Source of the DNA: Candidatus Micrarchaeota archaeon
GTDB taxonomy: Archaea; B1Sed10-29; JAJRYS01
DNA: 64,000 nt
Direction of reading: 5' to 3'
Assembly: GCA_964643685.1 (NCBI GenBank)
Contig: CAZXTN010000001.1
Location: forward strand, 96,001 to 160,000
Shown here: positions 1-18,560 of the stretch, piece by piece
Layout: every line of letters begins with the position of its first letter
How positions within the stretch are numbered: position 1 is the stretch's first letter
Translations under genes and position numbers: made by a program
The notes under the pieces: model-generated
Databases searched by the model: none
What the model saw: the letters and a program-made list of their open reading frames with translations, nothing else
Told to the model about the DNA's origin: nothing

Positions 1-2
1 TT

Positions 3-1148
3 GTAAAGCAGCCTGAGAAGGGACTGCATGAAAAAATTGCAGTATGCGACTTCCGTTCCTTATACCCTACTTTGATAATTGCTTATAACATTGACAAGAC
101 AACCTATAACAAGCCATGTAAGGATTACAACGTGTCTCCTAAAGGGCATAGGTTCTGCAAGAAGCCAATTGGCTTGATTCCAAAAATGCTTAAAGAATTT
201 CTTGAAAAGAGAATAGAAATAAAAAAGGAGATGAAAAAGTACAAGAAAGGAACTCCTCAATACAAGTTTAATTATTATAGGCAATGGGCTTTGAAAATAA
301 TAGCTAATTCTTCTTATGGTTACATGGTTTACGCTCGCGCCAAGTGGTACTCACGTGAAGCAGGTGAATCAGTTACTTCATGGGCGCGTGAAAAAATTCA
401 TGAGACAATAAAAAAAGCTGAACAAGAAGGATTCAGCGTCTTGTACGCTGACACTGACTCTGTTTTTTTAAAACTCGGTGACAGAAAAACCAAGCAGGAT
501 GTGTTTGATTTTGTTGAAAAAATAAATGCGAGTTTGCCAGAGGGAATGGAGCTTGAATTTGAAGGCTACTTCCCAAGAGGAATTTTTGTAAGCGGAAAAG
601 AAGGCAAGAGAGCTGTTAAGAAAAAATACGCTTTGATAAGAGAAGACGGCGGGCTTGAAATAAAAGGATTTGAATTAGTGAGAAGAGACTGGAGCAACAT
701 AGCAAAGGAAACGCAGAGGAAAGTAATCAAGGCAATTCTTGAACAAGGAAGCCCTGAAAAAGCAAAAGAGATTGTGAAAAAAACAATACAGGATATTAGG
801 GACAGGAAAATTGACTTGAAAGAATTTGTAATTTACACTCAGATTAAAAGAAAAATTGACAAGTATGAACAGCAGGCTCCTCATGTAAAAGCAGCTAAGA
901 AGCTGATTAAAGCAGGTTATAAAGTGAAAACAGGAACTATGCTTGAGTACGTGATAGTGCAGGGTTCAGGCAACATTTCAGACAGGGCAATTCCAATTCA
1001 ATTAATTGGAAACAAGAAGTATGACGCTGAGTATTACATTGAAAACCAAGTGCTTCCAGCTGTCATGAAGATAATAAGAGAAGTTGGGGTAACTGAAGAT
1101 GAGTTGAGGTACAAAGGCAAGCAAGAAGGGTTGAACAAATGGTTTTAA
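3..1148 (+). CDS. polB: Family B DNA polymerase, C-terminal part (5' end outside window)
   Basis: Frame open from base 3: DFRSLYP, KIIANSSYGY and YADTDS motifs, KKKYA; C-terminal PIP-box-like QEGLNKWF. Confidence 0.97.
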   Translation, partial: VKQPEKGLHEKIAVCDFRSLYPTLIIAYNIDKTTYNKPCKDYNVSPKGHRFCKKPIGLIPKMLKEFLEKRIEIKKEMKKYKKGTPQYKFNYYRQWALKIIANSSYGYMVYARAKWYSREAGESVTSWAREKIHETIKKAEQEGFSVLYADTDSVFLKLGDRKTKQDVFDFVEKINASLPEGMELEFEGYFPRGIFVSGKEGKRAVKKKYALIREDGGLEIKGFELVRRDWSNIAKETQRKVIKAILEQGSPEKAKEIVKKTIQDIRDRKIDLKEFVIYTQIKRKIDKYEQQAPHVKAAKKLIKAGYKVKTGTMLEYVIVQGSGNISDRAIPIQLIGNKKYDAEYYIENQVLPAVMKIIREVGVTEDELRYKGKQEGLNKWF

Positions 1149-1191
1149 AACAAAAAGGATTAAAAAGAAATTGAAAAGGAGATAATTGCAA

Positions 1192-2124
1192 ATGAACGAA
1201 GAGGAAATTGAATGGATTGAAGAAGAAGATCCTAACAGGTTTGATTATTACTTGAAAGCAGGTAAAGTAGCAGGTGAAGCTAGGAAAAAAGCAGCTTCTC
1301 TTGTCAAGCCAGGTAAGAGTGTTTACGAGTTAGTTGAAGAGGTTGAGCAATGGATTTTGAAACAGGACTGTGGTTGGAGCTTTCCAATTAACATTTCAAT
1401 AAACCACCAGGCAGCGCATTATACCCCTAAACTGAATGATGAATTGACATTCGGCGAAAATGATGTAGTGAAAGTTGATGTAGGAACTCATTACAAGGGT
1501 TATATTGGAGACACTGCTGAAACAGTTGACTTAAGCGGAGAAAATGGAAAGCTTGTTGAAGCAACTGAACAGGCGCTTGAAAATGCTTTGTCAGTGATAA
1601 AAGCAGGCATAGGCAGCCATGAAATAAGCAGGGAAATAGAGGAAACAATTAAAGAGTATGGTTTTAAGCCAGTTGAAAATTTAGGTGGGCATATGCTTGA
1701 ACAGTATGAGCTTCATGCTGGTTACTTCGTGCCTAATGTGGAGCAACAGGATTCATGGGAGTTGGAAGAAGGTTTTGCAATTGCGATTGAACCTTTTGCA
1801 TCAACTGGAAAAGGGCATGTAAGCGAAGGAAGTTACACTGAAATATTCACTTATGAGGGGGATGTGCTTACAAGAAACAGCACTGCAAGACAAGTTCTTG
1901 AAATTATAAGAAATGATTACCCTTCATTGCCTTTTGCTGAAAGATGGCTGGCTAAAAAATTCAAAGACAATGAATTTCAATTCAAGCTTGCTGTAAGGGA
2001 GTTAATGAAACTAGGTGCTTTGAAAGGATACCCAGTGCTTCAAGATGAAAAAAAATCGCTAGTAAGCCAAGCTGAAAAGACAATAATAGTTGAAAAAGAT
2101 TCATGCAGGATTACAACGCCTTAA
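1192..2124 (+). CDS. map: Methionine aminopeptidase type II
   Basis: AAHYTP, KVDVGTH..GYIGDTA, NLGGH, AIEPF and Q-x-E-x-T motifs. Confidence 0.95.
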   Translation: MNEEEIEWIEEEDPNRFDYYLKAGKVAGEARKKAASLVKPGKSVYELVEEVEQWILKQDCGWSFPINISINHQAAHYTPKLNDELTFGENDVVKVDVGTHYKGYIGDTAETVDLSGENGKLVEATEQALENALSVIKAGIGSHEISREIEETIKEYGFKPVENLGGHMLEQYELHAGYFVPNVEQQDSWELEEGFAIAIEPFASTGKGHVSEGSYTEIFTYEGDVLTRNSTARQVLEIIRNDYPSLPFAERWLAKKFKDNEFQFKLAVRELMKLGALKGYPVLQDEKKSLVSQAEKTIIVEKDSCRITTP

Positions 2125-2146
2125 AAAGAAACAGGTGTTTTGAAAA

Positions 2147-3004
2147 ATGAATTCAGATGAAAAAAAAGAAATGGTTCTTGAAATCTTTTTCCTGACTGCT
2201 TCAACTTTTTTATTCCTTTACTTTTTTTCAAAAACAGGCATAAGCTTTGACTACTCCTTTGACTTGACAAAAATGCAGGAGTTAGCAAGCACGGAGCTTG
2301 TTAAAAACTTAGCAGCTTCTGTTTTTTTCATTTCTTTCAGCATTTTTTTAATTAATTACTTCGCAAGAGGAATTGTAAAAAAAGAAAGAGCAGTGACTAT
2401 TACTTTAAGCATACTAACTGCCTCTCTTCTTTTTTATTACTTCAATGGATTGACAGAAGTAGGCATTGCAATGATTTTGTTCTACTGGATTGGGTTAATG
2501 TTCATCTCTGTCAAGACGCATAAGAAGCCGAAGAATGTCTGGGAAAAAATAGGAATTGGCTGGAGCCATTCCAAGAACATCACTCTTGCTCTTGCAATAG
2601 GAGGGCTTGTTGTTGGCTTGTATTTCACTAATGTTAACCTAAGCGAGTACCAGAATCTTGTTAAAGAATCAATAATAACAGTTTCAGTTGAAGCTTCTCA
2701 GCAGTTCATGCCTGAAGGCTATGAGTTAGATTCTTCAATTGCTTCAACGCAAAGAGCCTTGTTTGCTAGTTTAATTGAAGACATGCCCTTGTTTCAAAGT
2801 TTTTTAGACTCTCTTCCTTTGTTAACTGGCTTGATGCTGGCAAGCATAATTTACACAATAGGCAACATGACAATTCCCTTCATTACTTCTTTCCTGTGCT
2901 TGTTTTTAAAAACAGAAAAAGAACCTGAAGTGAAGTTAAAGCATAGGAAAGGATTGTTTGACAACGTGCCTGTTGAAGAAGAGGAAGAACGGCAAGAGCA
3001 GTGA
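2147..3004 (+). CDS. Hypothetical multi-pass membrane protein
   Basis: 285 aa ORF with GGTG RBS, about 6 hydrophobic segments and an acidic C-tail. Confidence 0.75.
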   Translation: MNSDEKKEMVLEIFFLTASTFLFLYFFSKTGISFDYSFDLTKMQELASTELVKNLAASVFFISFSIFLINYFARGIVKKERAVTITLSILTASLLFYYFNGLTEVGIAMILFYWIGLMFISVKTHKKPKNVWEKIGIGWSHSKNITLALAIGGLVVGLYFTNVNLSEYQNLVKESIITVSVEASQQFMPEGYELDSSIASTQRALFASLIEDMPLFQSFLDSLPLLTGLMLASIIYTIGNMTIPFITSFLCLFLKTEKEPEVKLKHRKGLFDNVPVEEEEERQEQ

Positions 3005-3051
3005 AAAAACTTTTTTCAATTTAATAAATTTTTTTATTGACTAAATAATTT

Positions 3052-3162
3052 GGGCCTGTAGCATAGTTTGGATTAATGCGCGCGGCTTCGGACCGCGAGA
3101 TCAGGGGTTCAAATATGCCTTGCGGATATTTCCGCATGCATGCGAAAATCCTCTCAGGCCCG
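3052..3162 (+). tRNA. tRNA-Arg(TCG) with T-loop intron at 59/60 (~3114-3148, 35 nt)
   Basis: Acceptor GGGCCTG/CAGGCCC; anticodon arm CGCGG-CT-TCG-GA-CCGCG; T-loop split TTCAAA|...CGAAAA|TCCTCT. Confidence 0.92.
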
Positions 3163-3280
3163 CTTCAACAATTGCAACTGATTCTGATTAGCAAGATTGA
3201 AAAGAAAAGGAAGAGAACAGAAAGAAGAAAAGGAAGTAAAACCTTTCTCCTTTCTTTCAGGGTTTCAGGAACTTGTTTTT

Positions 3281-3655
3281 TTAGATTGTTGCCAAGTCCC
3301 AGATTGTCTTTAAAGCGACAACAACTGCTGCTGGTGTTACGAAAGCCGCTATGTTGTTTATTATTGAAGCTAAAGGAACTCCAATGAATGGGATTAATGA
3401 TAATCCCCCTGCTGTTCCTCCAACTGCAACTAATGCGACTACTGCTAGCAAGAAAGCAGTTACGTCTTTTTCAACTAGGTTCAATAATCCTACAACAAGT
3501 CCTAGGATTACTAGGACAAGGATTACTGTTGCTGATGAGACGTCATCAAGCTGTCCTGCTGCAGACACTAATCCAGCAACTACAGCTATTAAGATACCTA
3601 GCAAGAATGCGTAGTATCCTATGTTGCTGTCGTTTGCTTTGCTTCTTCTAACCAT
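3281..3655 (-). CDS. Small hypothetical membrane protein (~4 TM)
   Basis: Uniformly hydrophobic ~124 aa ORF; TTTATAAA-like box upstream. Confidence 0.75.
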   Translation of the reverse strand: MVRRSKANDSNIGYYAFLLGILIAVVAGLVSAAGQLDDVSSATVILVLVILGLVVGLLNLVEKDVTAFLLAVVALVAVGGTAGGLSLIPFIGVPLASIINNIAAFVTPAAVVVALKTIWDLATI

Positions 3656-3729
3656 GTGTATCAATTAAAACAATAGATAAGCAGGGTTTATAAAGTTTTT
3701 TGTTTTTTAACGTCAAAAAGCGACAAAAG

Positions 3730-4557
3730 TTAGTTTTTTACAAGGATGTCAAATACAACTTGCACGACTGATGGCGAAAAAGGGCGGACAATTCTTTTAG
3801 AAATTATTTCAACCTCTTTTTTTTCTTTTTTTGCAATTTCCTTTATGCGTTTTTCAGAATCAGTATAAGGAAAGTCCTTTTTTGCGAAAGTGTAGAAGTG
3901 TATTATGCAATTTTCGCTAGCCTTCTCAAATGCCTTGCTTAGGAAATCTTCAGCTCCTTTTGGAAGGGGCATGATTATCCTGTCAAATTTAGGCAGTTCA
4001 TCAACAACTTCATTAACGTCTCCTAACACTGGTTTTATTACTTCCTCCATCTTGTTGAGTTTAATATTAGCTTTCAGGCTATTGAATGCATTTTCGTTAA
4101 GCTCAATGGCATAAATTAAAACTTTTTTATTTTTTTTGGCTATGACAAGTGGAAATGGACCTACTCCTGCAAACCATGCGCCTATTACTTCTCCTTCTTT
4201 GACTTGTTTTGCTATTCTTTCTCTTTCGTGGCTTAATCTTGGAGTGAAGTAAACTTTGTTTACGTCTAATCTCATTCTTACTCCTGATTCTTTATATTCT
4301 GTTTGTGTCGTGTTTTCTCCTGCTATCACTTCAACAGGGCGTATTCTGAAAACGCCTTGATGATGCCCTGCTCTTTTGCAGACTGTTTTAATGTTTTTGT
4401 TTAATTGAATGATTGCTTCTCCTATCTGTTTTTGTTTGTGTTGAAGTTCTGGGGGTATTTCAATTATTGCAATTGAACCTATTACGTCATAGCTTGTGAT
4501 TAATTTTTTCATTTCTTCTTCTGTGAGCTTGTCTTTCAGAAGTTCTTTCAAGTTCAT
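3730..4557 (-). CDS. Trm5/Taw2 (Met-10+-like) class I SAM-dependent tRNA-modifying transferase
   Basis: YDVIGSIAII, KVYFTPRLSHER, FAGVGPF SAM motif, DRIIMPLP, IIHFY. Confidence 0.9.
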   Translation of the reverse strand: MNLKELLKDKLTEEEMKKLITSYDVIGSIAIIEIPPELQHKQKQIGEAIIQLNKNIKTVCKRAGHHQGVFRIRPVEVIAGENTTQTEYKESGVRMRLDVNKVYFTPRLSHERERIAKQVKEGEVIGAWFAGVGPFPLVIAKKNKKVLIYAIELNENAFNSLKANIKLNKMEEVIKPVLGDVNEVVDELPKFDRIIMPLPKGAEDFLSKAFEKASENCIIHFYTFAKKDFPYTDSEKRIKEIAKKEKKEVEIISKRIVRPFSPSVVQVVFDILVKN

Positions 4558-4590
4558 AGTTTTATATTTACTCTCTTGATTAAAATAAAC

Positions 4591-5367
4591 ATGATGGATT
4601 GGTTGTCAGCTTATTTCATAGATCCTCTTGTAAAAGGCACAGGGTATAATATTGTTAACACTCTTTTTTTTGGAATTGTTTTTATAATTTTTTTATTTAT
4701 TATTGAAAAGGTTTCTGAGAAGATGAAAATAAAATTTGATGAGAAATTATTTTTTTCCCTTGCTCCATTTATAATTCTTGGGGGAGTTTTAAGGGCTTTG
4801 CAGGACACTGGTTTTTTTAATTTCTTGGGCTATTTCAGGTTCTTGTTTGTGACTCCTGGGATTTATTTTCTCATTTTTTCAATTGTTTTAATCAGCTTGT
4901 GGGTTGAGAAAAAAGGAGTTAAGAATTTTGCAGAGTTAAATGGAGTTGTGCTTGCTGCTTTTTTCTTAACAATTGCTTTGCTTGAGAGCAGGAATTGGAG
5001 CGGGTTTTTAATAGCTGTTTCCCTTGCTCTTATTTCTTTTTTTCTGAGTTTTTTGTTATTCAGAAAATTTCTGAAGTCAATGGAAGCTTGGACAGCTGTT
5101 TTTGCTCATTCGCTTGACGCTTGCAGCAGCGTCACTGCAATTTTAATTGTTGGTGGTTTTTGGGAGCAGCATGTGCTTCCTAAATTCTTATTGAATGCTG
5201 GGTTGTTTTGGCTGTTTATTCCATTGAAGATATTATTTGTTTTGTTTGTTTCTCGTTTTATTGAAGAAGAAAGCAGGGGTAATTGGAGATGGCTTTTTTT
5301 ATTTAGCTTAGTAGTGCTTGGCTTGGGGCCTGGAACGCGTGATGCTTTGGCAATACTTTTACATTAA
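4591..5367 (+). CDS. DUF63-like membrane protein
   Basis: GYNIVNT, GGVLRALQD, FVTPGIYF, AHSLD, EQHVL and LGLGPGTRD match my recollection of archaeal DUF63. Confidence 0.75.
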   Translation: MMDWLSAYFIDPLVKGTGYNIVNTLFFGIVFIIFLFIIEKVSEKMKIKFDEKLFFSLAPFIILGGVLRALQDTGFFNFLGYFRFLFVTPGIYFLIFSIVLISLWVEKKGVKNFAELNGVVLAAFFLTIALLESRNWSGFLIAVSLALISFFLSFLLFRKFLKSMEAWTAVFAHSLDACSSVTAILIVGGFWEQHVLPKFLLNAGLFWLFIPLKILFVLFVSRFIEEESRGNWRWLFLFSLVVLGLGPGTRDALAILLH

Positions 5368-5379
5368 AAAAGAGAGAAA

Positions 5380-12303: not shown

Positions 12304-12630
12304 ATGAGTAAATTATTAGATAAATTTAAGAGAATAAGAGAAAGAAAAAGAGCAAGGAGAGAGGACATAAAGCGTATTGAAAAAAACTTAGGGAAAATTG
12401 ACAGAGAGATAAGAGAAATAGAAAATGCTTTAAAAGGCGAGAGAAATTTACTTGAAGAAAGAGGAATGAAAGAGGATATGCCTGACTGGATTAAAGAAAA
12501 AATGGAAAGTGGAGTGGAACAAGAAGTAATTGGCATAGAAGGGAACCCTTCAGAGGTAATTTTAGAACAAAGGTTAATGGAACTTAAGAGAATAAGAAGG
12601 GGATTAAGAGAGGAGTTAAGTAGATTATAG
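12304..12630 (+). CDS. Hypothetical coiled-coil protein
   Basis: 108 aa, directly follows upstream ORF; the last base of its stop codon is the first base of tRNA-Val. Confidence 0.6.
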   Translation: MSKLLDKFKRIRERKRARREDIKRIEKNLGKIDREIREIENALKGERNLLEERGMKEDMPDWIKEKMESGVEQEVIGIEGNPSEVILEQRLMELKRIRRGLREELSRL

Positions 12631-12736
12631 GGCCCGTGGTCTAGTGGTTAGGAAAGCTGGCAGTGGAAAAGCTGTGGTTTTAGCAAACGTCGCCTTCACA
12701 CGGCGGAGATCGCTCGTTCAAGTCGGGCCGGGCCCA
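12630..12736 (+). tRNA. tRNA-Val(CAC) with D-stem intron (~23/24; 12653-12686, 34 nt)
   Basis: GGGCCCG/CGGGCCC; TCGCC-TT-CAC-AC-GGCGG; BHB helix GTTA/TAGC with GGA and AAA bulges. Confidence 0.9.
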
Positions 12737-12756
12737 CTTACAAAAAAACAAAAACT

Positions 12757-12801
12757 GCTTCCGTCTCCCAGGCCCAACTTCCTATGGGCGATCGGACAAG
12801 C
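12757..12801 (+). repeat. 10-nt copy of tRNA-Glu 5' end extended into an imperfect foldback hairpin
   Basis: GCTTCCGTCT equals 12827-12836; continues ...GCCCA-ACTTCCTA-TGGGC-GATCGGACAAGC. Confidence 0.6.
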
Positions 12802-12826
12802 CACACAAGGTGCCTTAAAAAAAATT

Positions 12827-12901
12827 GCTTCCGTCTTCTAGCTCGGTCAAGGATGAGGGACTCTCACTCCCTCGACGCGGGTTCAAATCCCGCCGGAAGC
12901 A
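12827..12901 (+). tRNA. tRNA-Glu(CTC), intronless
   Basis: GCTTCCG/CGGAAGC; AGGGA-CT-CTC-AC-TCCCT; GCGGG-TTCAAAT-CCCGC. Confidence 0.95.
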
Positions 12902-12964
12902 CTTAAAAGGAATAAAAAGCAGTGAAGGGTTTAAATCAGAGAAGAGAGTTAAAGAGGTATTAAG

Positions 12965-13408
12965 ATGGTTGATGAATTAGATTTGCAGATTTTAAGTATA
13001 CTTAGGAGAGATGCTAGGTTGTCTTATAGGAAGATAGCTGAGGAGTTAGGAGTAGCTACGGGAACTGTTCAGAATAGGATACAGAAAATGGAGCAGGAGA
13101 AGGTAATCACTGATTACCATGCAGGAATAGATTTAAGTAAATTAGGTTACAACATAGCTGCGATAATTGGAATATGTATTGATAGAAAAGAAGCAAGCAA
13201 AATAGAAAAAAAATTAGTCAAGCATTCAAATGTGTTTGCTGTTTATTCAGTAACAGGAGAGTATGACTTGTTTGTAGCAACAAGATTTAAGACAATGGAG
13301 GACCTTAATAATTTTATAAGAAAGGAATTGTCAAATGAATCAATACTGAAAACAAATACTTTCATAATATTAAACATTTCAAAAGAAACATACACCTTTC
13401 TAAAATAA
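12965..13408 (+). CDS. Lrp/AsnC family transcriptional regulator
   Basis: DELDLQIL..L..DAR.SY..IAEELGV HTH; VTGEYDL RAM domain. Confidence 0.95.
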   Translation: MVDELDLQILSILRRDARLSYRKIAEELGVATGTVQNRIQKMEQEKVITDYHAGIDLSKLGYNIAAIIGICIDRKEASKIEKKLVKHSNVFAVYSVTGEYDLFVATRFKTMEDLNNFIRKELSNESILKTNTFIILNISKETYTFLK

Positions 13409-13426
13409 AGAGGAGAAGATGAAAAA

Positions 13427-13885
13427 ATGGCAGAAGATGATTATATAATATTCGACGCAAAAGTAGGCAAATGGATAAGCATTAAAAAAATAAAAATAAA
13501 ACCAGACACAGAAAAAGCAGACGTAGCAAGACTCCTGGCAAGCATACATGACTCCATGCACAGGAAAATATGGGACTTCTTATCAGAAGAAGTAAACTTA
13601 AAAGAACTTGACGAAATAGCATATGAAATAACAGGAGCACAATTCGACAAGAAGAAAAAAACATACGTCGTAAAAGGAAGAAAATCAGAAGCACAAATAG
13701 CAGAAGCACTTGCAAAATGCAACTCCCCCTCAACGACAAAAAAGATAACAAAGTCTCCTAACAAGTATTACTTAGAAATAGCAAAAACTTACTTGACAAG
13801 AAAAGTCATCGACTTGCTTGGAGTAAGAATAGAAATAGACCCAAAAACAATTGAAAAATACATGGAACAAAAAAGCAAACTATAA
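13427..13885 (+). CDS. Conserved archaeal hypothetical protein (DUF2666-like)
   Basis: I.F.AK.GKW...KKIKI...TEK.DVARLLASI N-terminus resembles my recollection of DUF2666. Confidence 0.55.
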   Translation: MAEDDYIIFDAKVGKWISIKKIKIKPDTEKADVARLLASIHDSMHRKIWDFLSEEVNLKELDEIAYEITGAQFDKKKKTYVVKGRKSEAQIAEALAKCNSPSTTKKITKSPNKYYLEIAKTYLTRKVIDLLGVRIEIDPKTIEKYMEQKSKL

Positions 13886-13951
13886 AAAAAATCCTTTAAC
13901 AATTTCTTTTAAATACTAAAAAACAAACAAAAAATAGATAACACAAAAAAA

Positions 13952-14133
13952 GGGGCTATAGGGTAGTCATCGCTTACATTAAAAAAAAAGCGACTATAAT
14001 GGTCCATCCTTCCGGCTTTGGGAAAATTCTTCTCAACAGAAGAATTTAAAAACAGCCGGGGACCCCAGTTCGAACCTGCAATGAGTAAACTCACTGAGTT
14101 TTTCTCTTGCAAGAGAAAATCTGGGTAGCCCCA
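13952..14133 (+). tRNA. tRNA-Pro(TGG) with three introns: D-loop 13969-13999, 37/38 14023-14053, 59/60 14075-14119
   Basis: Removing three hairpin inserts gives GGGGCTA-TA-GGGTAGTCTGGTCCATCC-TT-CCGGC-TTTGGGA-GCCGG-GGAC-CCCAG-TTCGAAT-CTGGG-TAGCCCC-A. Confidence 0.9.
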
Positions 14134-14160
14134 TTAACAACTTCTCTAAAAAGAATAAAG

Positions 14161-14280
14161 TTAATTAAACAGAATACACAAGGGTTCCTTCTGCAACTAT
14201 GTTTACTATGCGTTTTGCAGAAGTTTCTTCTGCAACTGCGCTTGCTATGCGTTTTGCAGAAGTGGGGGAGCTTGGAAAAC
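14161..14280 (+). repeat. Degenerate copy of tRNA-Leu(TAA) upstream flank and 5' end, interrupted by two tandem 36-nt hairpins
   Basis: TTAATTAA..AGAA..CAAGGGT and GGAGCTTGGAAAAC match 14286-14328; units CTTCTGCAA...TTGCAGAAG at 14188-14223 and 14227-14262. Confidence 0.85.
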
Positions 14281-14303
14281 TCCCATTAATTAATATAGAA
14301 CAC

Positions 14304-14424
14304 GCAAGGGTGGCGGAGCTTGGAAAACGCGCAGGACTTAAGATCCGTACACAGGTTTTCAAACCTACCGGTTTGGTTATCCTGTGTCTCAGTGACTACG
14401 AGGGTTCAAATCCCTTCCCTTGCA
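14304..14424 (+). tRNA. tRNA-Leu(TAA) with 37/38 intron (~14343-14378, 36 nt)
   Basis: GCAAGGG/CCCTTGC; CAGGA-CT-TAA-G|...|A-TCCTG; long variable arm; GAGGG-TTCAAAT-CCCTT. Confidence 0.9.
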
Positions 14425-14603
14425 CTAATGGGTTTTATGCCCATGGGTTTTGATGCAACTTTTGTCAAAAGTTGCGTTTAAATCCCTTCCCTTGCACTTT
14501 GAAAAAAAATAAAGGGACTAAGCGAAGCGCATGTCGCTGGATTAAATGCAATTTTTGTTAAAAATTGCTGACAATCCCTTCCCTTGCACTAATGGGCTTA
14601 TGC
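14425..14603 (+). mobile_element. Two short palindromic inserts, each followed by a direct repeat of the tRNA-Leu T-loop-to-3' end (att-like)
   Basis: AATCCCTTCCCTTGCACT at 14409, 14481 and 14573; hairpins GCAACTTTT-GTC-AAAAGTTGC and GCAATTTTT-GTT-AAAAATTGC. Repeats are seen directly; mobility is inferred. Confidence 0.65.
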
Positions 14604-14620
14604 TTAATGGAGTTAATTTG

Positions 14621-14773
14621 ATGGGTAAGACTAAAAAAGATTTGAACAAACAAATGCAGTCAATTAAAAAAAGAATTGCTGAGTTAGAGGATAAAGCAAG
14701 AAAAGACCCTTTGAAGAAAAACAAAGCTTTGCATGAAGAACTAGCTAAATTAAAGAAAAAATTAAACAAGTGA
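14621..14773 (+). CDS. Small basic hypothetical protein (50 aa)
   Basis: MGKTKKDLNKQ...LAKLKKKLNK with GGAG upstream; helical pattern. Confidence 0.5.
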   Translation: MGKTKKDLNKQMQSIKKRIAELEDKARKDPLKKNKALHEELAKLKKKLNK

Positions 14774-14784
14774 AAAAGATAAGA

Positions 14785-15168
14785 TTAGATTTTTAGGGTT
14801 TTTTTAACAGCTTCTAATTCATTTTTAGGAATTCTCTTTTCAATTAAAAAATTATAAAAATCTACTTTAACCTTTCTAGGAAGCTTGTTAATATCCTGCG
14901 TTAAAAAGTTCCTCTTCAACCTAGTTTCTCTTAAAATTTGATTAGGATCAACTTTTGGAAGCAAAGTTGACATTGTTGCAAGATCTCCTGCTTCTCTTAT
15001 AGCAGAGTTGATGTCTCTCTGCATTTTTTCTTCTCTTAAATTCTTTCTTGCTTTTGAAAAAGAACGAGCCCATTTCCCATAAAGCCCCAATCTACCAGCT
15101 AAAGTAGCATCTTTAATTGCTTGACTAGCTGGGCTTCTACTACTCCTATTTTTACTTCTTGGTGCCAT
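14785..15168 (-). CDS. Hypothetical basic protein
   Basis: 127 aa ATG ORF with TTTAAATA box upstream; no recognisable motif. Confidence 0.55.
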   Translation of the reverse strand: MAPRSKNRSSRSPASQAIKDATLAGRLGLYGKWARSFSKARKNLREEKMQRDINSAIREAGDLATMSTLLPKVDPNQILRETRLKRNFLTQDINKLPRKVKVDFYNFLIEKRIPKNELEAVKKTLKI

Positions 15169-15225
15169 ATTCTTTTGTTAAGTTTTTTAAAGTATTTAAA
15201 ACCAAAACATAACAGAAAACTAAAA

Positions 15226-15407
15226 GCCTCGGTGGCTAAGACAGCAACAAAAACCAACTTTTTTGCTGTGGAAATGGTATAGCGCGTGCTTGGTAACTCT
15301 TTTGAAAAGGAAGAGACGAAAAGCACGAGGCCGCGGGTTCAATTCTGCGTTAAAAAAAATGAAAAAGAAGGAGTTTTTTTGCGCAGGTGAAAATCCCGCC
15401 CGAGGCT
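15226..15407 (+). tRNA. tRNA-Thr(GGT) with three introns: 15/16 15241-15274, 37/38 15296-15321, 59/60 15344-15393
   Basis: GCCTCGG/CCGAGGC acceptor; spliced D-arm GCTAAGTGGTATAGC; CGTGC-TT-GGT-AA-GCACG; T-loop BHB TTCA/TGAA. Confidence 0.9.
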
Positions 15408-15416
15408 CTTAACTAC

Positions 15417-15968
15417 TTATTCTTTAAGTGGAAGCAGTTCATTCAAGTTTTTTCTTTTGCCGTACCTGCCTATTGAATCATATGGCTTGCTTGCAGGTGT
15501 TTTTAATTCATGAAAAACCATTTTGCCAATAACCATTCCTTTAGTTAACACCACTTCAAAGGGACCTGAATTGCTGATTTCAAGAATTATTTTCCTTGCT
15601 TTTGGAATTCCATGCCCAGCGTGGATCAAAGGAGCAGTTTGCACGACACTTACCCCTACCCTAGCAAGCCCAGTGCGTCCAGTAATAAAACCACTGACAT
15701 CAAGAGGAATTGTAAATTTTTCAAGAGTACGTGCTAAAATAAAACTATTCGGCTTTAAAACAAAACCTTGCTTTGAAATACGTGTTTTTTTATAAAAAAG
15801 AGAGTAATCACTTACGCCTCTTGGATTTAACTTGCCTTGCTTGGCAATTGCTATTGCTGAATCCAAGTGAATCTTATAAGAATCAGGCTGCAAGTCTTTC
15901 TTGTTAAAAGGAGTTATTTTAAGCTTTTTAGAGTTAATTAATTCAAGAATGTCTTTATCAGAATACAT
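15417..15968 (-). CDS. dcd: dCTP deaminase family protein (divergent)
   Basis: SDKDI, LQPDSY.IHL, LKPNSFILARTLE, GRTGLARVG, ILEISN, GM.IG..VF. Confidence 0.85.
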   Translation of the reverse strand: MYSDKDILELINSKKLKITPFNKKDLQPDSYKIHLDSAIAIAKQGKLNPRGVSDYSLFYKKTRISKQGFVLKPNSFILARTLEKFTIPLDVSGFITGRTGLARVGVSVVQTAPLIHAGHGIPKARKIILEISNSGPFEVVLTKGMVIGKMVFHELKTPASKPYDSIGRYGKRKNLNELLPLKE

Positions 15969-16164
15969 ATAAATAAGAAAAAACCAAACAATGTTTATAA
16001 ACATTCGCTCATAAAATACAAATAAAAGGCAGGGACATGCAAACAATTAAAAAATTGTTTGAACCCCCTACATTATAAGACTGCTGTTAAAAATGCAGGG
16101 GTGCATGAACAAAGCAAGTTTGTTCAATCCCCAGCTTGCCACTATGACAAGCTATTAAGAACAA

Positions 16165-16389
16165 GCAGGGGTAGCCAAGAGGTCAACGGCGCCAGGTTCA
16201 GGTGAACTTCTTTCAAAAAGAAGTTCTGAAACGCCTGGTCTCTCAGTGAGTTCAAGGGTTCGAAAGCAGCCGTATCCGGCTGGCGGGCTAGACGACGTTC
16301 ACTTCGTTCAGTCGTCTGGTTTTCTTTTTAAAAAAGAAAAAGAGTCCGCTTTCAGCTGGAAACAGTTGACGGGAATCCCTTTCCCTGCA
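16165..16389 (+). tRNA. tRNA-Leu(CAG) with 37/38 intron (16203-16232, 30 nt) and long 59/60 intron (16265-16375, 111 nt)
   Basis: GCAGGGG/TCCCTGC; CCAGG-TT-CAG-G|...|G-CCTGG with BHB TTCA/TGAA; AAGGG-TTCGAA|...|T-CCCTT. Confidence 0.9.
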
Positions 16390-16425
16390 TTTATTTTCAA
16401 ATTACAAAAAATGAGTAAATGAAAT

Positions 16426-16500
16426 GCCGGGGTGGTTCAGCCTGCCCCTTTCTTTTAAAAAAAGAAAGCGACAAGTTCGCGGAAAGAAAAAAGGTTGAAA
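16426..16500 (+). pseudogene. Orphan tRNA-Met 5' exon plus a different intron-like sequence, no 3' exon
   Basis: GCCGGGGTGGTTCAGCC identical to 16516-16532; followed by 58 nt ending GTTGAAA (real intron ends GCTGAAA). Confidence 0.75.
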
Positions 16501-16515
16501 AACAATAGAAAAAAC

Positions 16516-16633
16516 GCCGGGGTGGTTCAGCCACTGCGTTGAAAAGATTTCAACGTGTTTTCAGCGCAGCTGAAATGGTTAGGACGCAAGACTCATAATC
16601 TTGAGATCGCTGGTTCAAATCCGGCCCCCGGCA
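16516..16633 (+). tRNA. tRNA-Met(CAT), elongator-type, with D-loop intron (16533-16575, 43 nt)
   Basis: GCCGGGG/CCCCGGC; CAAGA-CT-CAT-AA-TCTTG; strict BHB TCAG/CTGA, bulges CCA and AAT, outer stem CTGCG/CGCAG. Ile2(CAT) identity not fully excluded. Confidence 0.9.
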
Positions 16634-16640
16634 CTAAAAA

Positions 16641-16714
16641 AAGGGCTTTATACCCTTTTGGGTTTTGATGCAACTTTTGTTAAAAGTTGCCGAAGATCCA
16701 GCCCCCGGCACTAA
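16641..16714 (+). mobile_element. Palindromic insert followed by a copy of the tRNA-Met 3' end
   Basis: 16659-16690 matches 14444-14475 at 31/32 nt; ATCCAGCCCCCGGCACTAA repeats ATCCGGCCCCCGGCACTAA. Mobility inferred. Confidence 0.65.
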
Positions 16715-16781
16715 GAAATAAATGAAAAAAAGCCATAACAAAGCATTTAAATAATGCTTTAGATAAAAAAACATAGAAACC

Positions 16782-16924
16782 GCCGCAGTAGCACAGTCTG
16801 CAAGAAACGAAGTTTCTTGAGCTTCCACCTTGCAGGTGCAATGGTAGTGCGGCTGCCTTGTAAACAACCTTAAAAAGTTGTTCAGGACAGCAGCAGGTCA
16901 CCGGTTCAAATCCGGTCTGCGGCT
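16782..16924 (+). tRNA. tRNA-Thr(TGT) with 15/16 intron (16797-16841, 45 nt) and 37/38 intron (16863-16888, 26 nt)
   Basis: GCCGCAG/CTGCGGC; strict BHB GCAC/GTGC; GCTGC-CT-TGT-A|...|A-GCAGC. Confidence 0.92.
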
Positions 16925-17115
16925 CTACAATTTGTTGAACAAATTGTATTAAACAATCTATCTTCGGCGACAAGCGCCTTGATAGACTAGTTCAAACTTC
17001 TAACGAAGTTTGAAATCTTTTTTGCCTTACGGCAAAAAAATGAGCACTTCAGCAAGCTGAAGGGGTCAATTGATACAAACTTTTAAAGTTTGTTTTGCCT
17101 TACGGCAAAAAACAA
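16925..17115 (+). ncRNA. Candidate multi-hairpin structured element, copy 1 (tRNA-Thr trailer)
   Basis: First 31 nt identical to 17937-17967, then the same order of hairpins. Confidence 0.55.
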
Positions 17116-17157
17116 AAAGTGAAAGTAGCAAGATAAGAAAATAGGTGTTTTTTGAAA

Positions 17158-17472
17158 ATGATTAAGATATATAAGATACCAAATGAAAAACTGCAAGAAG
17201 CAAAGAAAGTGCTTGAAAACCCAGATGTAACAACAAACAATTGGGCTAGAAACGGCTACACACTAAGAGACGCTAAAATAATTGGCTTTGATGAAAACTG
17301 CAATTACCTATACGTAAAAGCAATTGAAGAATTCTTCCAACAAAACGAAAAACAAATAACAAGCATAGAAGGGGTTGCAATCTTGGAAGGAGAAGAATTT
17401 GAAAAAGTAAAAAACAAAATAGAGGAAGAGCAGGATTCAACAGCCTCAGGAATAGGAGCAATTTTCGGATAA
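17158..17472 (+). CDS. Conserved archaeal hypothetical protein
   Basis: GGTG RBS; W.RNGYTLRDA, YLYVKA, C-terminal A.GIGAIFG resemble a small archaeal family. Confidence 0.75.
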   Translation: MIKIYKIPNEKLQEAKKVLENPDVTTNNWARNGYTLRDAKIIGFDENCNYLYVKAIEEFFQQNEKQITSIEGVAILEGEEFEKVKNKIEEEQDSTASGIGAIFG

Positions 17473-17492
17473 AAAAAGAGAACAAGGTTAAG

Positions 17493-17565
17493 GGGCTCGT
17501 GGGCTAGTCTGGTATGCTCGGAGCTTCGGGAGCTCCTGACCTGAGTTCAAATCTCAGCGAGCCCA
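17493..17565 (+). tRNA. tRNA-Pro(CGG), intronless
   Basis: GGGCTCG/CGAGCCC; GGAGC-TT-CGG-GA-GCTCC; CTGAG-TTCAAAT-CTCAG. Confidence 0.93.
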
Positions 17566-17657
17566 GTTAACAAAAAAAACAGTTCAAAGAAAAAACAAGT
17601 TTGATAAGATACAATATTAATAAATAACAAAAATAAAAGAACAGATAATAAAAAAAT

Positions 17658-17768
17658 CCCGCTGTAGCTTAGTGGTAGAGCGCCTGGCTGTAGTATGGTT
17701 AAACGCGTGAAAAACGTGTTTTGCAGGTGGTCACCGGGAGATCGGGAGTTCAAATCTCCCCGGCGGGA
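17658..17768 (+). tRNA. tRNA-Tyr(GTA) with 37/38 intron (17694-17732, 39 nt)
   Basis: C1-G72 acceptor CCCGCTG/CGGCGGG-A; CCTGG-CT-GTA-G|...|A-CCGGG. Confidence 0.93.
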
Positions 17769-17808
17769 TTGCCTTTAAAAAAAGAAGAAAACATAAAAAA
17801 AGCAAAAT

Positions 17809-17936
17809 GCCCCGGTAGTCTAGTGGTTAGGATTCAGCCCTGTCGAGGCTGAGACTCGGGTTCAAAAGTGACTTTTCTTTTCAAAAAAGAAAAGACACCT
17901 GAAAAGAAAACACTACTGAAAATCCCGGCTGGGGCG
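17809..17936 (+). tRNA. tRNA-Asp(GTC) with 59/60 intron (17867-17922, 56 nt)
   Basis: GCCCCGG/CTGGGGC-G; CAGCC-CT-GTC-GA-GGCTG; TTCAAA|...TGAAAA|TCCCGG. Confidence 0.93.
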
Positions 17937-18222
17937 CTACAATTTGTTGAACAAATTGTATTAAACAGACCACACAAGGTAGTCTTATTCAAACTCTTTC
18001 AGAGTTTGAAATGTTTTTGCCTTCGCAAAAAAGCTTTGCTTCAAAGAAGGGTTGAAACAAAAATTATAAAAGACCCCTAAGAGAAGCACATGTGGTCTGC
18101 GAGGGAATCAGAAATTCCCTAGAAATCAATCGCCTAACGGCTCAAACGTTTTTCCCTAACAGGAAAAACTGAAAGGGGCAGCAAGTCCCCTGCGTTTCGG
18201 TGAGGATTCAGGCTGGGGCGCT
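17937..18222 (+). ncRNA. Candidate multi-hairpin structured element, copy 2, bounded by a repeat of the tRNA-Asp 3' end
   Basis: Same hairpin series as 16925-17115; GGCTGGGGCGCT at 17927-17938 and 18211-18222. Confidence 0.55.
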
Positions 18223-18251
18223 TTAGCTTTAAAGCAAAAAAGATACGAATA

Positions 18252-18265
18252 GAAAAGTATATATA
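18252..18265 (+). promoter_or_regulatory. BRE/TATA promoter of the rpoH operon
   Basis: GAAAAG-TATATATA about 60 nt upstream of the rpoH start. Confidence 0.55.
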
Positions 18266-18326
18266 CTTGGAAAGCAACAAAAGATACACCTATTTTTTTT
18301 CTATTTTTGGGCTGGGTGAAGTTAAT

Positions 18327-18560
18327 TTGAGCAAAAAAAAGATACTTGAGCATGAATTAGTGCCATTGCACGAGGTTTTACCAGAAGAAGAAGTTAGTCT
18401 TATTTTGAAGAAGTATGGAATTGCAAAAGAGCAGTTGCCTAAAATTTTATCAGATGATCCTGTTGTAAAAGCAATAGGAGCTAAAGAGGGGCAGGTTCTT
18501 AAGATTACAAGAAAAAGCCCAACTGTTCATGAAAGCATTTATTATCGTTTAGTGGTTTGA
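18327..18560 (+). CDS. rpoH: RNA polymerase subunit Rpo5 (H)
   Basis: HELVPLHEVL, QLPKIL.DDPV, ITRKSPT...YYRLV; TTG start after GGTGA. Confidence 0.96.
   Translation: MSKKKILEHELVPLHEVLPEEEVSLILKKYGIAKEQLPKILSDDPVVKAIGAKEGQVLKITRKSPTVHESIYYRLVV

Follow-up and report, generated by a model that had tools for sequence, protein, structure and literature searches.

Module A, the hairpin-rich DNA that directly follows the tRNA-Thr(TGT) and tRNA-Asp(GTC) genes in the 64,000-nucleotide stretch analysed here (the window), is, with a probability that we put at about 60%, a unit of a palindromic mosaic DNA repeat—composed of A, two companion modules B and C, and smaller pieces—that is specific to its lineage, is spreading, and is co-transcribed as a disposable 3' trailer. 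The unit is present in multiple copies placed mainly at gene ends, is a mosaic from copy to copy, has companions that duplicate their targets, and, in the form defined by the covariance model R1, is missing at syntenic sites of related genera. The repeat family would have colonised the few places that a very compact archaeal genome (695 kb, or ~0.7 Mb; assembly 92% complete) tolerates, namely the first bases past gene ends; at the window loci, A would have been placed after CTA, the ancestral trailer of tRNA-Thr and tRNA-Asp, to be transcribed within the 3' trailer and then removed by RNase Z, harmlessly and with no evident function of its own. We infer that the copying takes place at the DNA level, for which a candidate route would be template switching during replication, from one hairpin-rich repeat to another via short microhomologies (A-rich or TA); the alternative candidate is an enzyme, either unrecognised or external. 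If this reading is true, these sequences constitute one more palindromic mosaic repeat family, though an unusual one in its ~0.7-Mb archaeal host, its base-precise fusion to tRNA 3' ends, its companions that duplicate tRNA exons, and the failure to find a known mobilising enzyme.

Structure of the loci behind tRNA-Thr and tRNA-Asp

All the features of the two loci lie on the plus strand. The tRNA-Thr(TGT) gene (16782..16924) has introns in the D-loop and the anticodon loop and the discriminator T at 16924 (Rfam tRNA match at 16832–16921, ARAGORN at 16838–16925, exon ends assigned by reading), while tRNA-Asp(GTC) (17809..17936) has a T-loop intron at about 17866–17922 and the discriminator G at 17936 (partial Rfam tRNA match at 17809–17862, exons by reading). 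Both window copies of module A begin one base past the discriminator, and at those positions, 16925 and 17937, the identical 31 nt reported in a preliminary description of this DNA are indeed present: the window has exactly two occurrences of the 31-mer (16925–16955 and 17937–17967; 0 matches in 100 shuffles), and its 21-nt core has only these two sites in the whole genome.

The Thr copy of A (16925..17041; R1 score of 99.9 bits, and fold) consists of CTA, the hairpin h1 (16926–16948), the linker ATTAAACA, and the hairpins h2 (16957–16986), h3 (16991–17014), and h4 (17018–17039). Behind h4 comes module C (17036..17093; nhmmer C1:113036–113093, E 5.6e-16), formed by an h2-like hairpin, TTGATAC, and an h1-like hairpin, and then, by sequence comparison, a second copy of h4 (17093..17112; the first at 17020–17039), h4 itself being the target duplicated around C. 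The same duplication underlies the repetition of TTTTGCCTTACGGCAAAA at 17020 and 17093 already noticed in the preliminary description, which repeat is exact over 20 nt and 87% identical over 31 nt.

The Asp copy (17937..18033; R1 score of 92.6 bits, and fold) has CTA, h1 (17938–17960), the linker, h2 (17967–17985), h3 (17988–18010), and h4 (18014–18031). It is followed by a spacer (18034..18070) bearing CTTCAAAGAAGGG, probably a shortened C-like hairpin to judge from the alignment of C; by module B (18071..18205; nhmmer C1:114071–114203, E 5.8e-22), with three hairpins, an optional inserted piece, and GCGTTTCGGTGAGGA as its end; and by a degenerate second tRNA-Asp 3' exon (18206..18222) identical to 17922–17938 at 15 of 17 positions (family D4: 17917–17938 versus 18201–18222, 82% over 22 nt).

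The interval 16925–18120, once proposed to be a single element, thus holds A+C, a 104-aa gene, three tRNAs, and A+B, the order across it being tRNA-Thr, A+C, the 104-aa gene, tRNA-Pro, tRNA-Tyr, tRNA-Asp, and A+B. The motif CTTC..GAAG-GG that had been listed among its shared features probably corresponds to the C-like hairpin of the Asp spacer, other features of that list falling in B and C. AGACCACA (17967) and TGTGGTCT (18091) are complementary, but the long-range pairing suggested for them is unnecessary, both being within local hairpins: 17967–17985 constitutes h2 of A, and 18091–18098 closes the first hairpin of B, which hairpin is formed likewise in other B copies.

Fold and variation of module A

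Module A extends over about 100–120 nt and is made up of four perfect hairpins plus a conserved single-stranded linker, (T/C)AT(C/T)AAACA. Upon folding, the Thr and Asp copies each formed four local hairpins in the same order, in agreement with the order originally described behind the two tRNAs, with an MFE of -40.4 kcal/mol (z -9.2) for the former and of -26.9 (z -4.2) for the latter; in each case, 0 of 200 shuffles equalled the native value. The module carries as a signature a hairpin followed by ATCAAACA.

In the aligned copies the stems are kept and the loops differ, as had been observed for the window pair, and double changes occur in 19 of the 27 pairs of the module, with 0 of 500 shuffles reaching as high a count. 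Covariation and further copies, for which the preliminary description had called, are therefore both present. Together with the strong folds, the absence of a match to known families, the start of A right behind the discriminator, and the RNase Z encoded in the genome, this covariation speaks for the reading favoured in that description, in which A is a trans-acting structured ncRNA cut from the tRNA precursor by RNase Z. We nevertheless consider a dedicated trans-acting ncRNA unlikely, and its release from a tRNA precursor in that manner very improbable. The 13 copies of A differ in every hairpin sequence and have the architecture alone in common; among 344 stem cells there are 327 Watson–Crick pairs, 1 G·T, 5 A·C or C·A, and 11 further mismatches, so that G·U pairs are nearly absent; folding of the minus strands is equal to that of the plus strands or even stronger; the best partner copy changes from hairpin to hairpin, each hairpin having its own genealogy; two copies stand behind protein genes; and the unit is missing at the same loci in related genera, with no R1 copy in 29 of the 30 other genomes of the class. 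The part played by RNase Z finds support only trivially, in that any trailer following a tRNA would be cut off. Under our preferred reading as a DNA repeat, the seemingly compensatory changes in the stems would come from the swapping of whole palindromes and from palindrome correction instead of from selection on an RNA; as a practical warning, covariation among paralogous palindromes, even in 19 of 27 pairs, is by itself no proof of a functional RNA.

The sequence preceding h1 in the 13 aligned copies is CTA, TAG, CTAG, TTAG, TGAA, or GCG. The left flank always has a TA (CTA, TAG, TTAG, TGA, or TAA) with no duplication, but CTT or CTA is in any event the usual sequence after the discriminator of this genome's tRNAs. 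Module A lacks terminal inverted repeats and, at the Thr, Asp, and thermosome sites, is not flanked by a duplicated target, which weighs against our preferred reading. Nested insertions involve the copies at C7:12208, C4:21, and C1:66089, and C6:17363–17546 is the only locus bounded by two inverted A units (composite).

Copies of module A in the genome

The covariance model R1 found 13 copies of module A in the 695-kb genome (E <= 2.4e-6), a number that, with the two copies behind protein genes, is at odds with a two-copy, tRNA-specific RNA gene. In nine copies a tRNA 3' exon lies no more than 4 nt from the start (Thr, Asp, Arg-CCT, Ala-GGC, Ala-TGC, Asn, and three others), two more begin at most 3 nt past the stop codons of a PAC2-family gene and the thermosome gene, and the remaining copies are one in tandem and one inverted. 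The junction is very precise (discriminator plus CTA or TAG), and in 12 of the 13 instances the upstream gene and the copy have the same orientation. These last two properties, along with the recurrence in four genera of a signature of a hairpin plus ATCAAA, could all three reflect function.

Such a function might be exerted in cis at the 3' ends of highly expressed genes, where A, being co-transcribed, would serve to stop transcription, to block 3' exonucleases, or as a processing platform, possibly after exaptation from a repeat as reported for the bacterial REP/BIME; we regard this alternative as possible though rather doubtful. The 12 co-oriented copies starting 0–4 nt past the end of the upstream gene, the tRNAs and the thermosome as hosts, and the run of T4–T6 in h4 are all consistent with it, as are the hairpins that stand right behind many tRNA discriminators in related genera as well (8 of 26 flanks in G001, and the trailers of G002; see below). 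Yet h4 is absent in two copies, the majority of the genome's tRNAs have no module A at all, the stems show no tolerance of G·U, and the unit occurs also in inverted form, as C, and as an intron. Moreover, A is no replacement for the native T-rich run of the thermosome gene because that run persists downstream of A; and the syntenic thermosome and Asp sites in four of four relatives, as well as the Thr site in three of the four, have no A as defined by R1.

Modules B and C, direct repeats, and tRNA introns

Module B gave 15 model matches, 11 of them with E < 1e-9, while C, present in at least 8 copies, corresponds to one half of A in reverse complement. Both B and C lie between direct repeats, 17–60 nt long, that copy the 3' end of the gene upstream, be it a tRNA or a CDS, more than 15 different targets, CDS ends included, being so duplicated, with a sequence that differs from target to target. 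Among the tRNA-associated direct repeats, 10 of 13 begin at (A)ATC(C/T) in the T-loop, which position is the site of the genome's T-loop introns; in addition, the 5' exon of tRNA-Met is duplicated exactly as far as its D-loop intron site. The introns of this genome's tRNAs lie in the D-loop, the anticodon loop, and the T-loop and belong to sequence families common to different tRNAs, the end of B resembles the D-type T-loop introns (..GGTGA(A/G)(A/G)A ahead of the 3' exon), and the genome encodes both RNase Z, at C5:30092–30976, and the splicing endonuclease EndA, at C1:21078–21338. The idea that the D-type introns begin with a fossil 3' exon was discarded since the bases concerned are paired with a stretch further along in that intron.

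These coincidences with splice positions, together with the fact that A-like units are real introns in two relatives, G015 and G003, would fit an origin at the RNA level, in which the modules are RNAs resembling introns and processed by the splicing endonuclease and a ligase, and the flanking duplications are RNA-defined units—the 3' exon between the T-loop splice position and the end of the transcript, or the 5' exon up to the D-loop intron site—returned to DNA via RNA-templated repair; B or C plus a duplicated exon would then represent T-loop introns in the making, and A an element of this kind at the tRNA 3' end. We judge this origin improbable in view of the 60-nt repeat behind tRNA-Ile, which extends past the T-run into the downstream DNA, of the direct repeats of B at CDS ends, where there is no splice site, of the lack of a duplicated exon at most A sites, and of a genome in which no reverse transcriptase was found.

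A further explanation takes the modules to be scars of site-specific integrative plasmids or viruses, with the duplicated tRNA 3' ends as attL and attR and with A, B, and C as arms that survived an internal deletion. The Asp locus, where the order is tRNA 3' end, A, B, and second 3' end, has the appearance of such a scar, as does one tRNA with three tandem 3' exons; in a near-identical metagenome contig, furthermore, the tRNA fragment is separated from the A pair by unrelated DNA in which there is a small DNA-binding-like ORF, and integration at archaeal tRNA genes that leaves fragments behind is described in PMC3293823. An origin of this kind is nonetheless very hard to uphold: no tyrosine recombinase was found, the more than 15 targets, CDS ends among them, would each require a matching attP, the duplications vary in length from 17 to 60 nt, and the viral contigs searched did not contain the module.

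The same evidence allows a tentative extension of the preferred reading, one that we think has a minor though real chance of being correct. A, B, and C may be the vehicle of archaeal tRNA intron gain, as self-copying hairpins that enter the loops and ends of tRNA genes and that, where an exon is duplicated (tRNA-Asp, tRNA-Met, and about 10 other tRNAs), would yield a T-loop or D-loop proto-intron removable by a splicing endonuclease of broad specificity, the unit being already a true intron in relatives; no transposase would be needed for this process, since template switching at hairpin-stalled forks or RNA-defined exon units might suffice. One sequence family occurs in three states—a 3' trailer, an insertion with a duplicated exon, and a true tRNA intron in relatives—and its main value lies in the possible view of how archaeal tRNA genes acquire introns. 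The route by which those introns arrive is still open according to a 2026 preprint (10.64898/2026.10.13.758758), and this clade provides dated, alignable insertions on which that question can be tested.

Related genomes, metagenomes, and viruses

In all four family relatives the stop codon of the thermosome gene is followed by a short T-rich trailer with no A, and the sequences read behind tRNA-Asp contained no hairpin unit matching A in any of the four. The distance from tRNA-Thr to the orthologous 104-aa gene is 31–40 nt in three of the four; the Thr site is not empty in every relative because G002 carries an h1-like hairpin plus AATCAAAAAAC, an A-like half, directly downstream of its tRNA-Thr. 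As these relatives are of other genera, a loss of A in them is formally possible. Along with the mosaic copies, one of them nested, and the target duplications of the companion modules, the missing R1-defined A at those syntenic sites fits the other suggestion of the preliminary description, that of a larger member of a mobile family.

A BLAST search with A against 60 relatives returned, outside its own genome, a single 33-nt match and nothing else. Similar architectures are found in the clade. In G015 the canonical intron of tRNA-Arg(TCT) consists of an A-like unit (52 bits), and in G003 a unit of h1 plus linker is inside a tRNA-Thr intron. In G001, TA, a hairpin, and GCAT(A/T)(A/T)AC come right after the discriminator in 8 of the 26 tRNA flanks read, which look-alikes are homologous to A in architecture only because R1 gives them no score, and the tRNA trailers of G002 contain a hairpin followed by TATCAAAAG.

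The h3 hairpin pattern was met at 2 loci in genome contigs and 4 in metagenome contigs, with true copies of A in L057 alone, which metagenome contig is 98% identical to C6:17354–17571. In viral contigs three patterns gave 2, 0, and 48 loci, respectively, none with an R1 score at E <= 0.01. The sequencing runs listed for this genome comprised eight of DNA and none of RNA. The contigs of four metagenome runs provided no clean presence/absence joint for A over 12500–18500, and this lack of polymorphism weighs against the preferred reading; those contigs break at the 31-mer repeat, and the joints listed match other genomic copies of the modules.

Mobility enzymes and known RNA families

Nine protein families were searched, namely EndA, RNase Z, and seven families of mobility enzymes. 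PF01797 (Y1 transposase/TnpA/RAYT) gave no match at E <= 0.1 in the 92%-complete genome (control positive in 7 of 14 genomes), and none to PF00589 (tyrosine recombinase; control positive in 14 of 14) or to PF01867 (Cas1), hence no sign of a casposon-like integrase; the reverse transcriptase, DDE_Tnp_1, and rve likewise had no match in the 92%-complete genome. The best hit to PF07282 (TnpB zinc ribbon), 23.6 bits in a 94-aa frame, is below the cut-off of 26.3. The failure of these seven families to reveal a mobilising enzyme weighs against the preferred reading.

The comparison with Rfam and IS-end RNAs that had been advised for these loci gave no match. At gathering scores only the tRNAs were recovered in the whole window, and when 16400–18400 was scanned up to an E of 5, nothing outside the tRNAs was close to a gathering score and HEARO did not match. 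Other candidates were likewise set aside: neither A copy has the RUGAUGA/CUGA pair of a C/D box sRNA, and C, despite loose look-alikes, is a hairpin; a hammerhead-like core in B proved, on reading, to be an incomplete motif; and a pairing of A with C in the manner of split-tRNA leaders and trailers is not favoured by the h1 subtypes at the Thr locus, which are not complementary. Literature searches, supplements aside, on DPANN tRNA introns and MITEs, intron transposition, and palindromes behind archaeal tRNAs turned up no account of such elements.

Comparison with known systems

Close parallels exist with the RAYT-associated REP/BIME of bacteria, for which roles in termination and in mRNA stability have been proposed (PMC2817692, PMC3733652, PMC8266576). 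Both are short extragenic palindromes at gene 3' ends, many per genome, with a short conserved tag by the hairpin; both also form mosaics in the two orientations, here with 13 copies of A, 15 matches of B, and at least 8 copies of C as the inverted A half. Unlike the GTAG or CGTC tag on a 20–40-nt palindrome that characterises REP/BIME, the tag here is (C/T)TA(G/C), and the archaeal host, in which a Y1/RAYT gene was not found, the four-hairpin unit fused to tRNA 3' ends, and the tRNA intron in relatives are further points of difference.

Yeast mitochondrial GC clusters, Allomyces double-hairpin elements, and sponge hairpin repeats, all of them mobile repeats of small, AT-rich organelle genomes, share with our modules the tiny gene-dense genome, the intergenic or intron sites, the kept hairpins, and the variable loops; in these organelles, too, palindromes merge and shuffle with no known encoded transposase and by a copying mechanism described as unresolved (PMC4478555). 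Unlike those mitochondrial repeats, the modules here are tied precisely to tRNA 3' ends and have long gene-end duplications.

As with integrative archaeal plasmids and the Dictyostelium TRE retrotransposons, for which tRNA genes are safe havens, mobile DNA is tolerated beside tRNA genes in a compact genome and tRNA 3' parts are duplicated (PMC3293823, PMC5391098), although those elements are kilobases long and have their own integrase or reverse transcriptase. Unlike the remnants of integrative elements, the modules have no single fixed att core, the duplicated sequence differing per target.

With the non-canonical tRNA introns of archaea and their intron transposition, the modules share intron families common to different tRNAs and A-like introns, as in G015 and G003; unlike such introns, the window copies start past the discriminator, outside the tRNA, and copies follow protein genes as well. 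That intron transposition is associated with the Thermoproteales.

A classical MITE has terminal inverted repeats and a short duplication of fixed length, whereas the Thr and Asp copies have neither. Palindromes and MITEs derived from IS200/IS605 are, like these modules, non-coding and hairpin-rich, and module A, which stands next to a short TA-containing motif with no target duplication, may resemble them in their insertion 3' of a fixed tetra- or pentanucleotide without such a duplication. Unlike them, the family is in a genome where TnpA was not found and TnpB scored below threshold only, matches neither HEARO nor Rfam, and has, around B and C, duplications that are long and variable. The linker of A contains TCAA and the inverted C contains TTGAT, two words that we take to resemble the cleavage or target words of IS608 and ISDra2.

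Distribution of module A in the genome

The genome of this archaeon (695 kb in 12 contigs, 36% G+C, 92% complete), whose DNA is contained in hydrothermal-vent metagenome runs, encodes an archaeal splicing endonuclease, a thermosome, a PAC2-family protein, and RNase Z; by its size and gene content the organism may be DPANN-like. The tRNA genes are heavily interrupted; in the window, which spans C1:96001-160000, ARAGORN detected three and the Rfam model five, with more being recognized on reading the sequence. Contig C8, of 25.8 kb, repeats C1:75876-101373 (in the window, 1-5373) to 99.95%, which duplication is either assembly redundancy or a strain variant and doubles two tRNA matches in the genome-wide counts; since C8 holds no copy of module A, the count of that element is not inflated.

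Module A—a four-hairpin repeat (h1, linker, h2, h3, h4) of about 100-120 nt—had been proposed as a new structured RNA fused to the 3' ends of tRNA-Thr(TGT) and tRNA-Asp (window 16925-17041 and 17937-18033, respectively). The observations underlying that preliminary description were borne out: the 31-mer identical in both copies is found at 16925 and 17937 and nowhere else in the window, and had no match in any of 100 shuffles; the copies start one base past the discriminator of tRNA-Thr(TGT) and tRNA-Asp(GTC); each contains four local hairpins in the same order, a fold of which shuffles fall far short (z -9.2 and -4.2); and the repeat in the Thr copy at 17020 and 17093 is real, its sequence being that of h4.

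That A is modular and dispersed was evident at once from BLAST and nhmmer against the same genome. With R1, a covariance model from the alignment of nine copies, 13 copies were found at E-values from 8e-16 to 2.4e-6, the next match (E 0.009) being an antisense overlap. Nine start no more than 4 nt from a tRNA 3' exon—those of Thr, Asp, Arg-CCT, Ala-GGC, Ala-TGC, two C6 tRNAs, one at the beginning of C4, and Asn, the last sitting behind a duplicated exon. Two begin at most 3 nt from the stop codons of the PAC2-family and thermosome genes, one follows the PAC2 copy in tandem, and one is inverted, having h4 in common with a forward copy (C6:17363-17546). The metagenome contig L057 (positions 1-496) is 98% identical to C6:17354-17571, which is that convergent pair; the DNA upstream of its tRNA 3' fragment is unrelated and has, on the minus strand, a small ORF that is winged-helix-like. 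L057 could represent another strain in which this tRNA received a larger insertion.

Comparison with related genomes

When 31 genomes of the class were searched, this one included, with 120-150 first-look candidates scored per genome, R1 found no copy in 29 of the 30 others or, under the same limit on candidates, in 16 of the 17 others of the order. The single outside match (52 bits), in the relative G015, is a canonical-position intron of tRNA-Arg(TCT) composed of h1, CATCAAAAGA, h2, and an h4-like hairpin; and in genus G003 an h1+linker unit lies within the tRNA-Thr intron. This link of module A to tRNA introns is the reason for further interest in the element.

The family's other four genera retain the order tRNA-Thr, conserved 104-aa gene, tRNA-Tyr, tRNA-Asp, rpoH. 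The 104-aa protein (MIKIYKIP...GIGAIFG; window 17158-17472) has no Pfam family, and its orthologues, 57-72% identical, occupy the same place between tRNA-Thr and the next tRNA in all four. From tRNA-Thr to that gene, G001, G004, and G003 have 31-40 nt without a hairpin unit; the G002 locus contains CTT, an h1-like hairpin, and AATCAAAAAAC. At tRNA-Asp, reading of the sequences revealed no hairpin unit matching A in any of the four: in G001 the sequence continues straight into the rpoH promoter region, in G004 a B-like module and a second 3' exon are present, and in G003 other modules and a second 3' end. The thermosome stop codon is followed in all four by a short T-rich trailer; in the present genome A lies between the stop and the T-run. 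As the trailer CTA is common to G001 and this genome, CTA is ancestral and A proper begins at h1; many tRNAs of this genome have CTT or CTA after the discriminator. A look-alike family in G001 (TA, hairpin, GCAT(A/T)(A/T)AC, hairpin) stands behind 8 of the 26 tRNA flanks read and is unscored by R1.

Covariation within module A

In the alignment of the 13 copies—fitted to the model, and thus favouring pairing—95.3% of the cells pair. Both sides change in 19 of 27 pairs, which number was reached by none of 500 shuffles, the slid controls giving at most 8. Watson-Crick pairs occupy 327 cells and G·T 1, with 5 cells of A·C or C·A and a further 11 of other mismatches; the change is one-sided in 1 cell versus two-sided in 72. 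The reverse strands fold equally well or better (-45.3 vs -40.4 and -32.3 vs -26.9 kcal/mol), and each hairpin of a copy has a different nearest relative; those of the Thr copy are Asp for h1, C6:36626 for h2, Arg for h3, and Ala-GGC for h4. Quasi-palindromes can undergo templated correction. The pattern is that expected from the exchange of whole palindromes together with such correction, and not from stepwise compensatory evolution of one RNA; we therefore do not read the covariation as selection on RNA.

Module A is genuine and strongly structured, had no earlier description in the libraries searched, and is most readily accounted for as a mosaic DNA repeat that spreads and is co-transcribed as a disposable trailer, rather than as a dedicated noncoding RNA. 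The closest known systems are REP/BIME, IS200/IS605-derived palindromic elements, and the hairpin repeats of organelle genomes; by tag sequence and enzyme, A does not qualify for either of the first two. Among the abstracts, outlines, and passages of the literature consulted, none described tRNA-tail repeats of this kind in archaea.

Modules B and C and the copying of gene ends

Two further modules accompany A, whose families we modelled with nhmmer. B (15 matches, 11 with E < 1e-9) has three hairpins and terminates in ..GCG(G/T)TTCGGTGA(G/A)GA; the sequence TGTGGTCT at 18091, for which the preliminary description noted a possible long-range pairing with 17967-17974, closes the first hairpin of B, as in the other B copies. 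C, for its part, is the reverse complement of one half of A (h1, linker, h2), as indicated by antisense matches on A copies. On either side of most B and C copies stand direct repeats (17-60 nt) that copy the 3' end of the upstream gene, whether tRNA or protein gene; the tRNA duplications begin at the T-loop ATCC in 10 of the 13 cases read. The C of the window (17036-17093) sits between two copies of h4, so that the duplicated 'target' is the end of tRNA-Thr plus A; behind the B (18071-18205) comes a tRNA-Asp 3' exon for the second time, in slightly decayed form (18206-22 vs 17922-38).

Family searches of this genome found no Y1 transposase, tyrosine recombinase, reverse transcriptase, Cas1, DDE_Tnp_1, or rve, and only sub-threshold matches to the TnpB zinc-ribbon family; self-BLAST found no multi-copy element longer than the modules. 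Either the enzyme belongs to an unrecognised family or is external, or the copying is enzyme-independent. We favour replication template switching among hairpin-rich repeats, by which the modules would be copied, because A-runs, TA, or ATC are found at the junctions; because the duplicated stretches are long, differ in length, and have one end fixed at a T-loop ATCC matching the end of B and C; and because similarity of the 5' parts is greatest between neighbouring copies (31/31 nt identical between Thr and Asp, at a distance of 1 kb; 0.94 identity between C6:15575 and C6:17363, at 1.8 kb). A bolder alternative is an RNA-level route in which exon-unit duplications would arise via the splicing machinery, in favour of which the tRNA-Met 5' exon is duplicated 90 nt upstream exactly up to the D-loop intron site (16426-16442 vs 16516-16532).

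The tRNA-Met 3' exon is also duplicated, 80 nt downstream and behind a C-type module (16617-16634 vs 16697-16714), which copy would give better T-stem pairing than the first. At C6:36285-36734 one tRNA has its 3' exon in three tandem copies, with two B modules between and then A, in what looks like tandem accretion at one site. The stretch 18199-18211 (GGTGAGGATTCAG), made up of the last bases of B and the first of the second Asp exon, matches the D-arm/anticodon-stem region of tRNA-Asp (17825-17837, GGTTAGGATTCAG) at 12 of 13 positions, which may be chance or a trace of junction formation.

Intron families and shared hairpins

Seven different tRNA genes share, with one further fragment at the end of a contig, a structured intron in the T-loop (D type, about 110 nt) that begins with CAGCCGTATCCGGCTGGCGGGC directly after GGTTCRAA, contains internal long-range helices, and had no Rfam match (window 16166-16390, in tRNA-Leu CAG; C1:32499(-), C2:13289, C2:39880, C6:17239, C6:36297, and C9:6044(-)). 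The hairpin CTTTTCTTTT..AAAAGAAAAG occurs in the D-type introns, upstream of tRNA-Met (16449-16467), and in the tRNA-Asp T-loop intron (17874-17892); in G002 (loci L061, L067, and L165) it stands directly behind tRNA discriminators, so that one hairpin type is common to introns and flanks.
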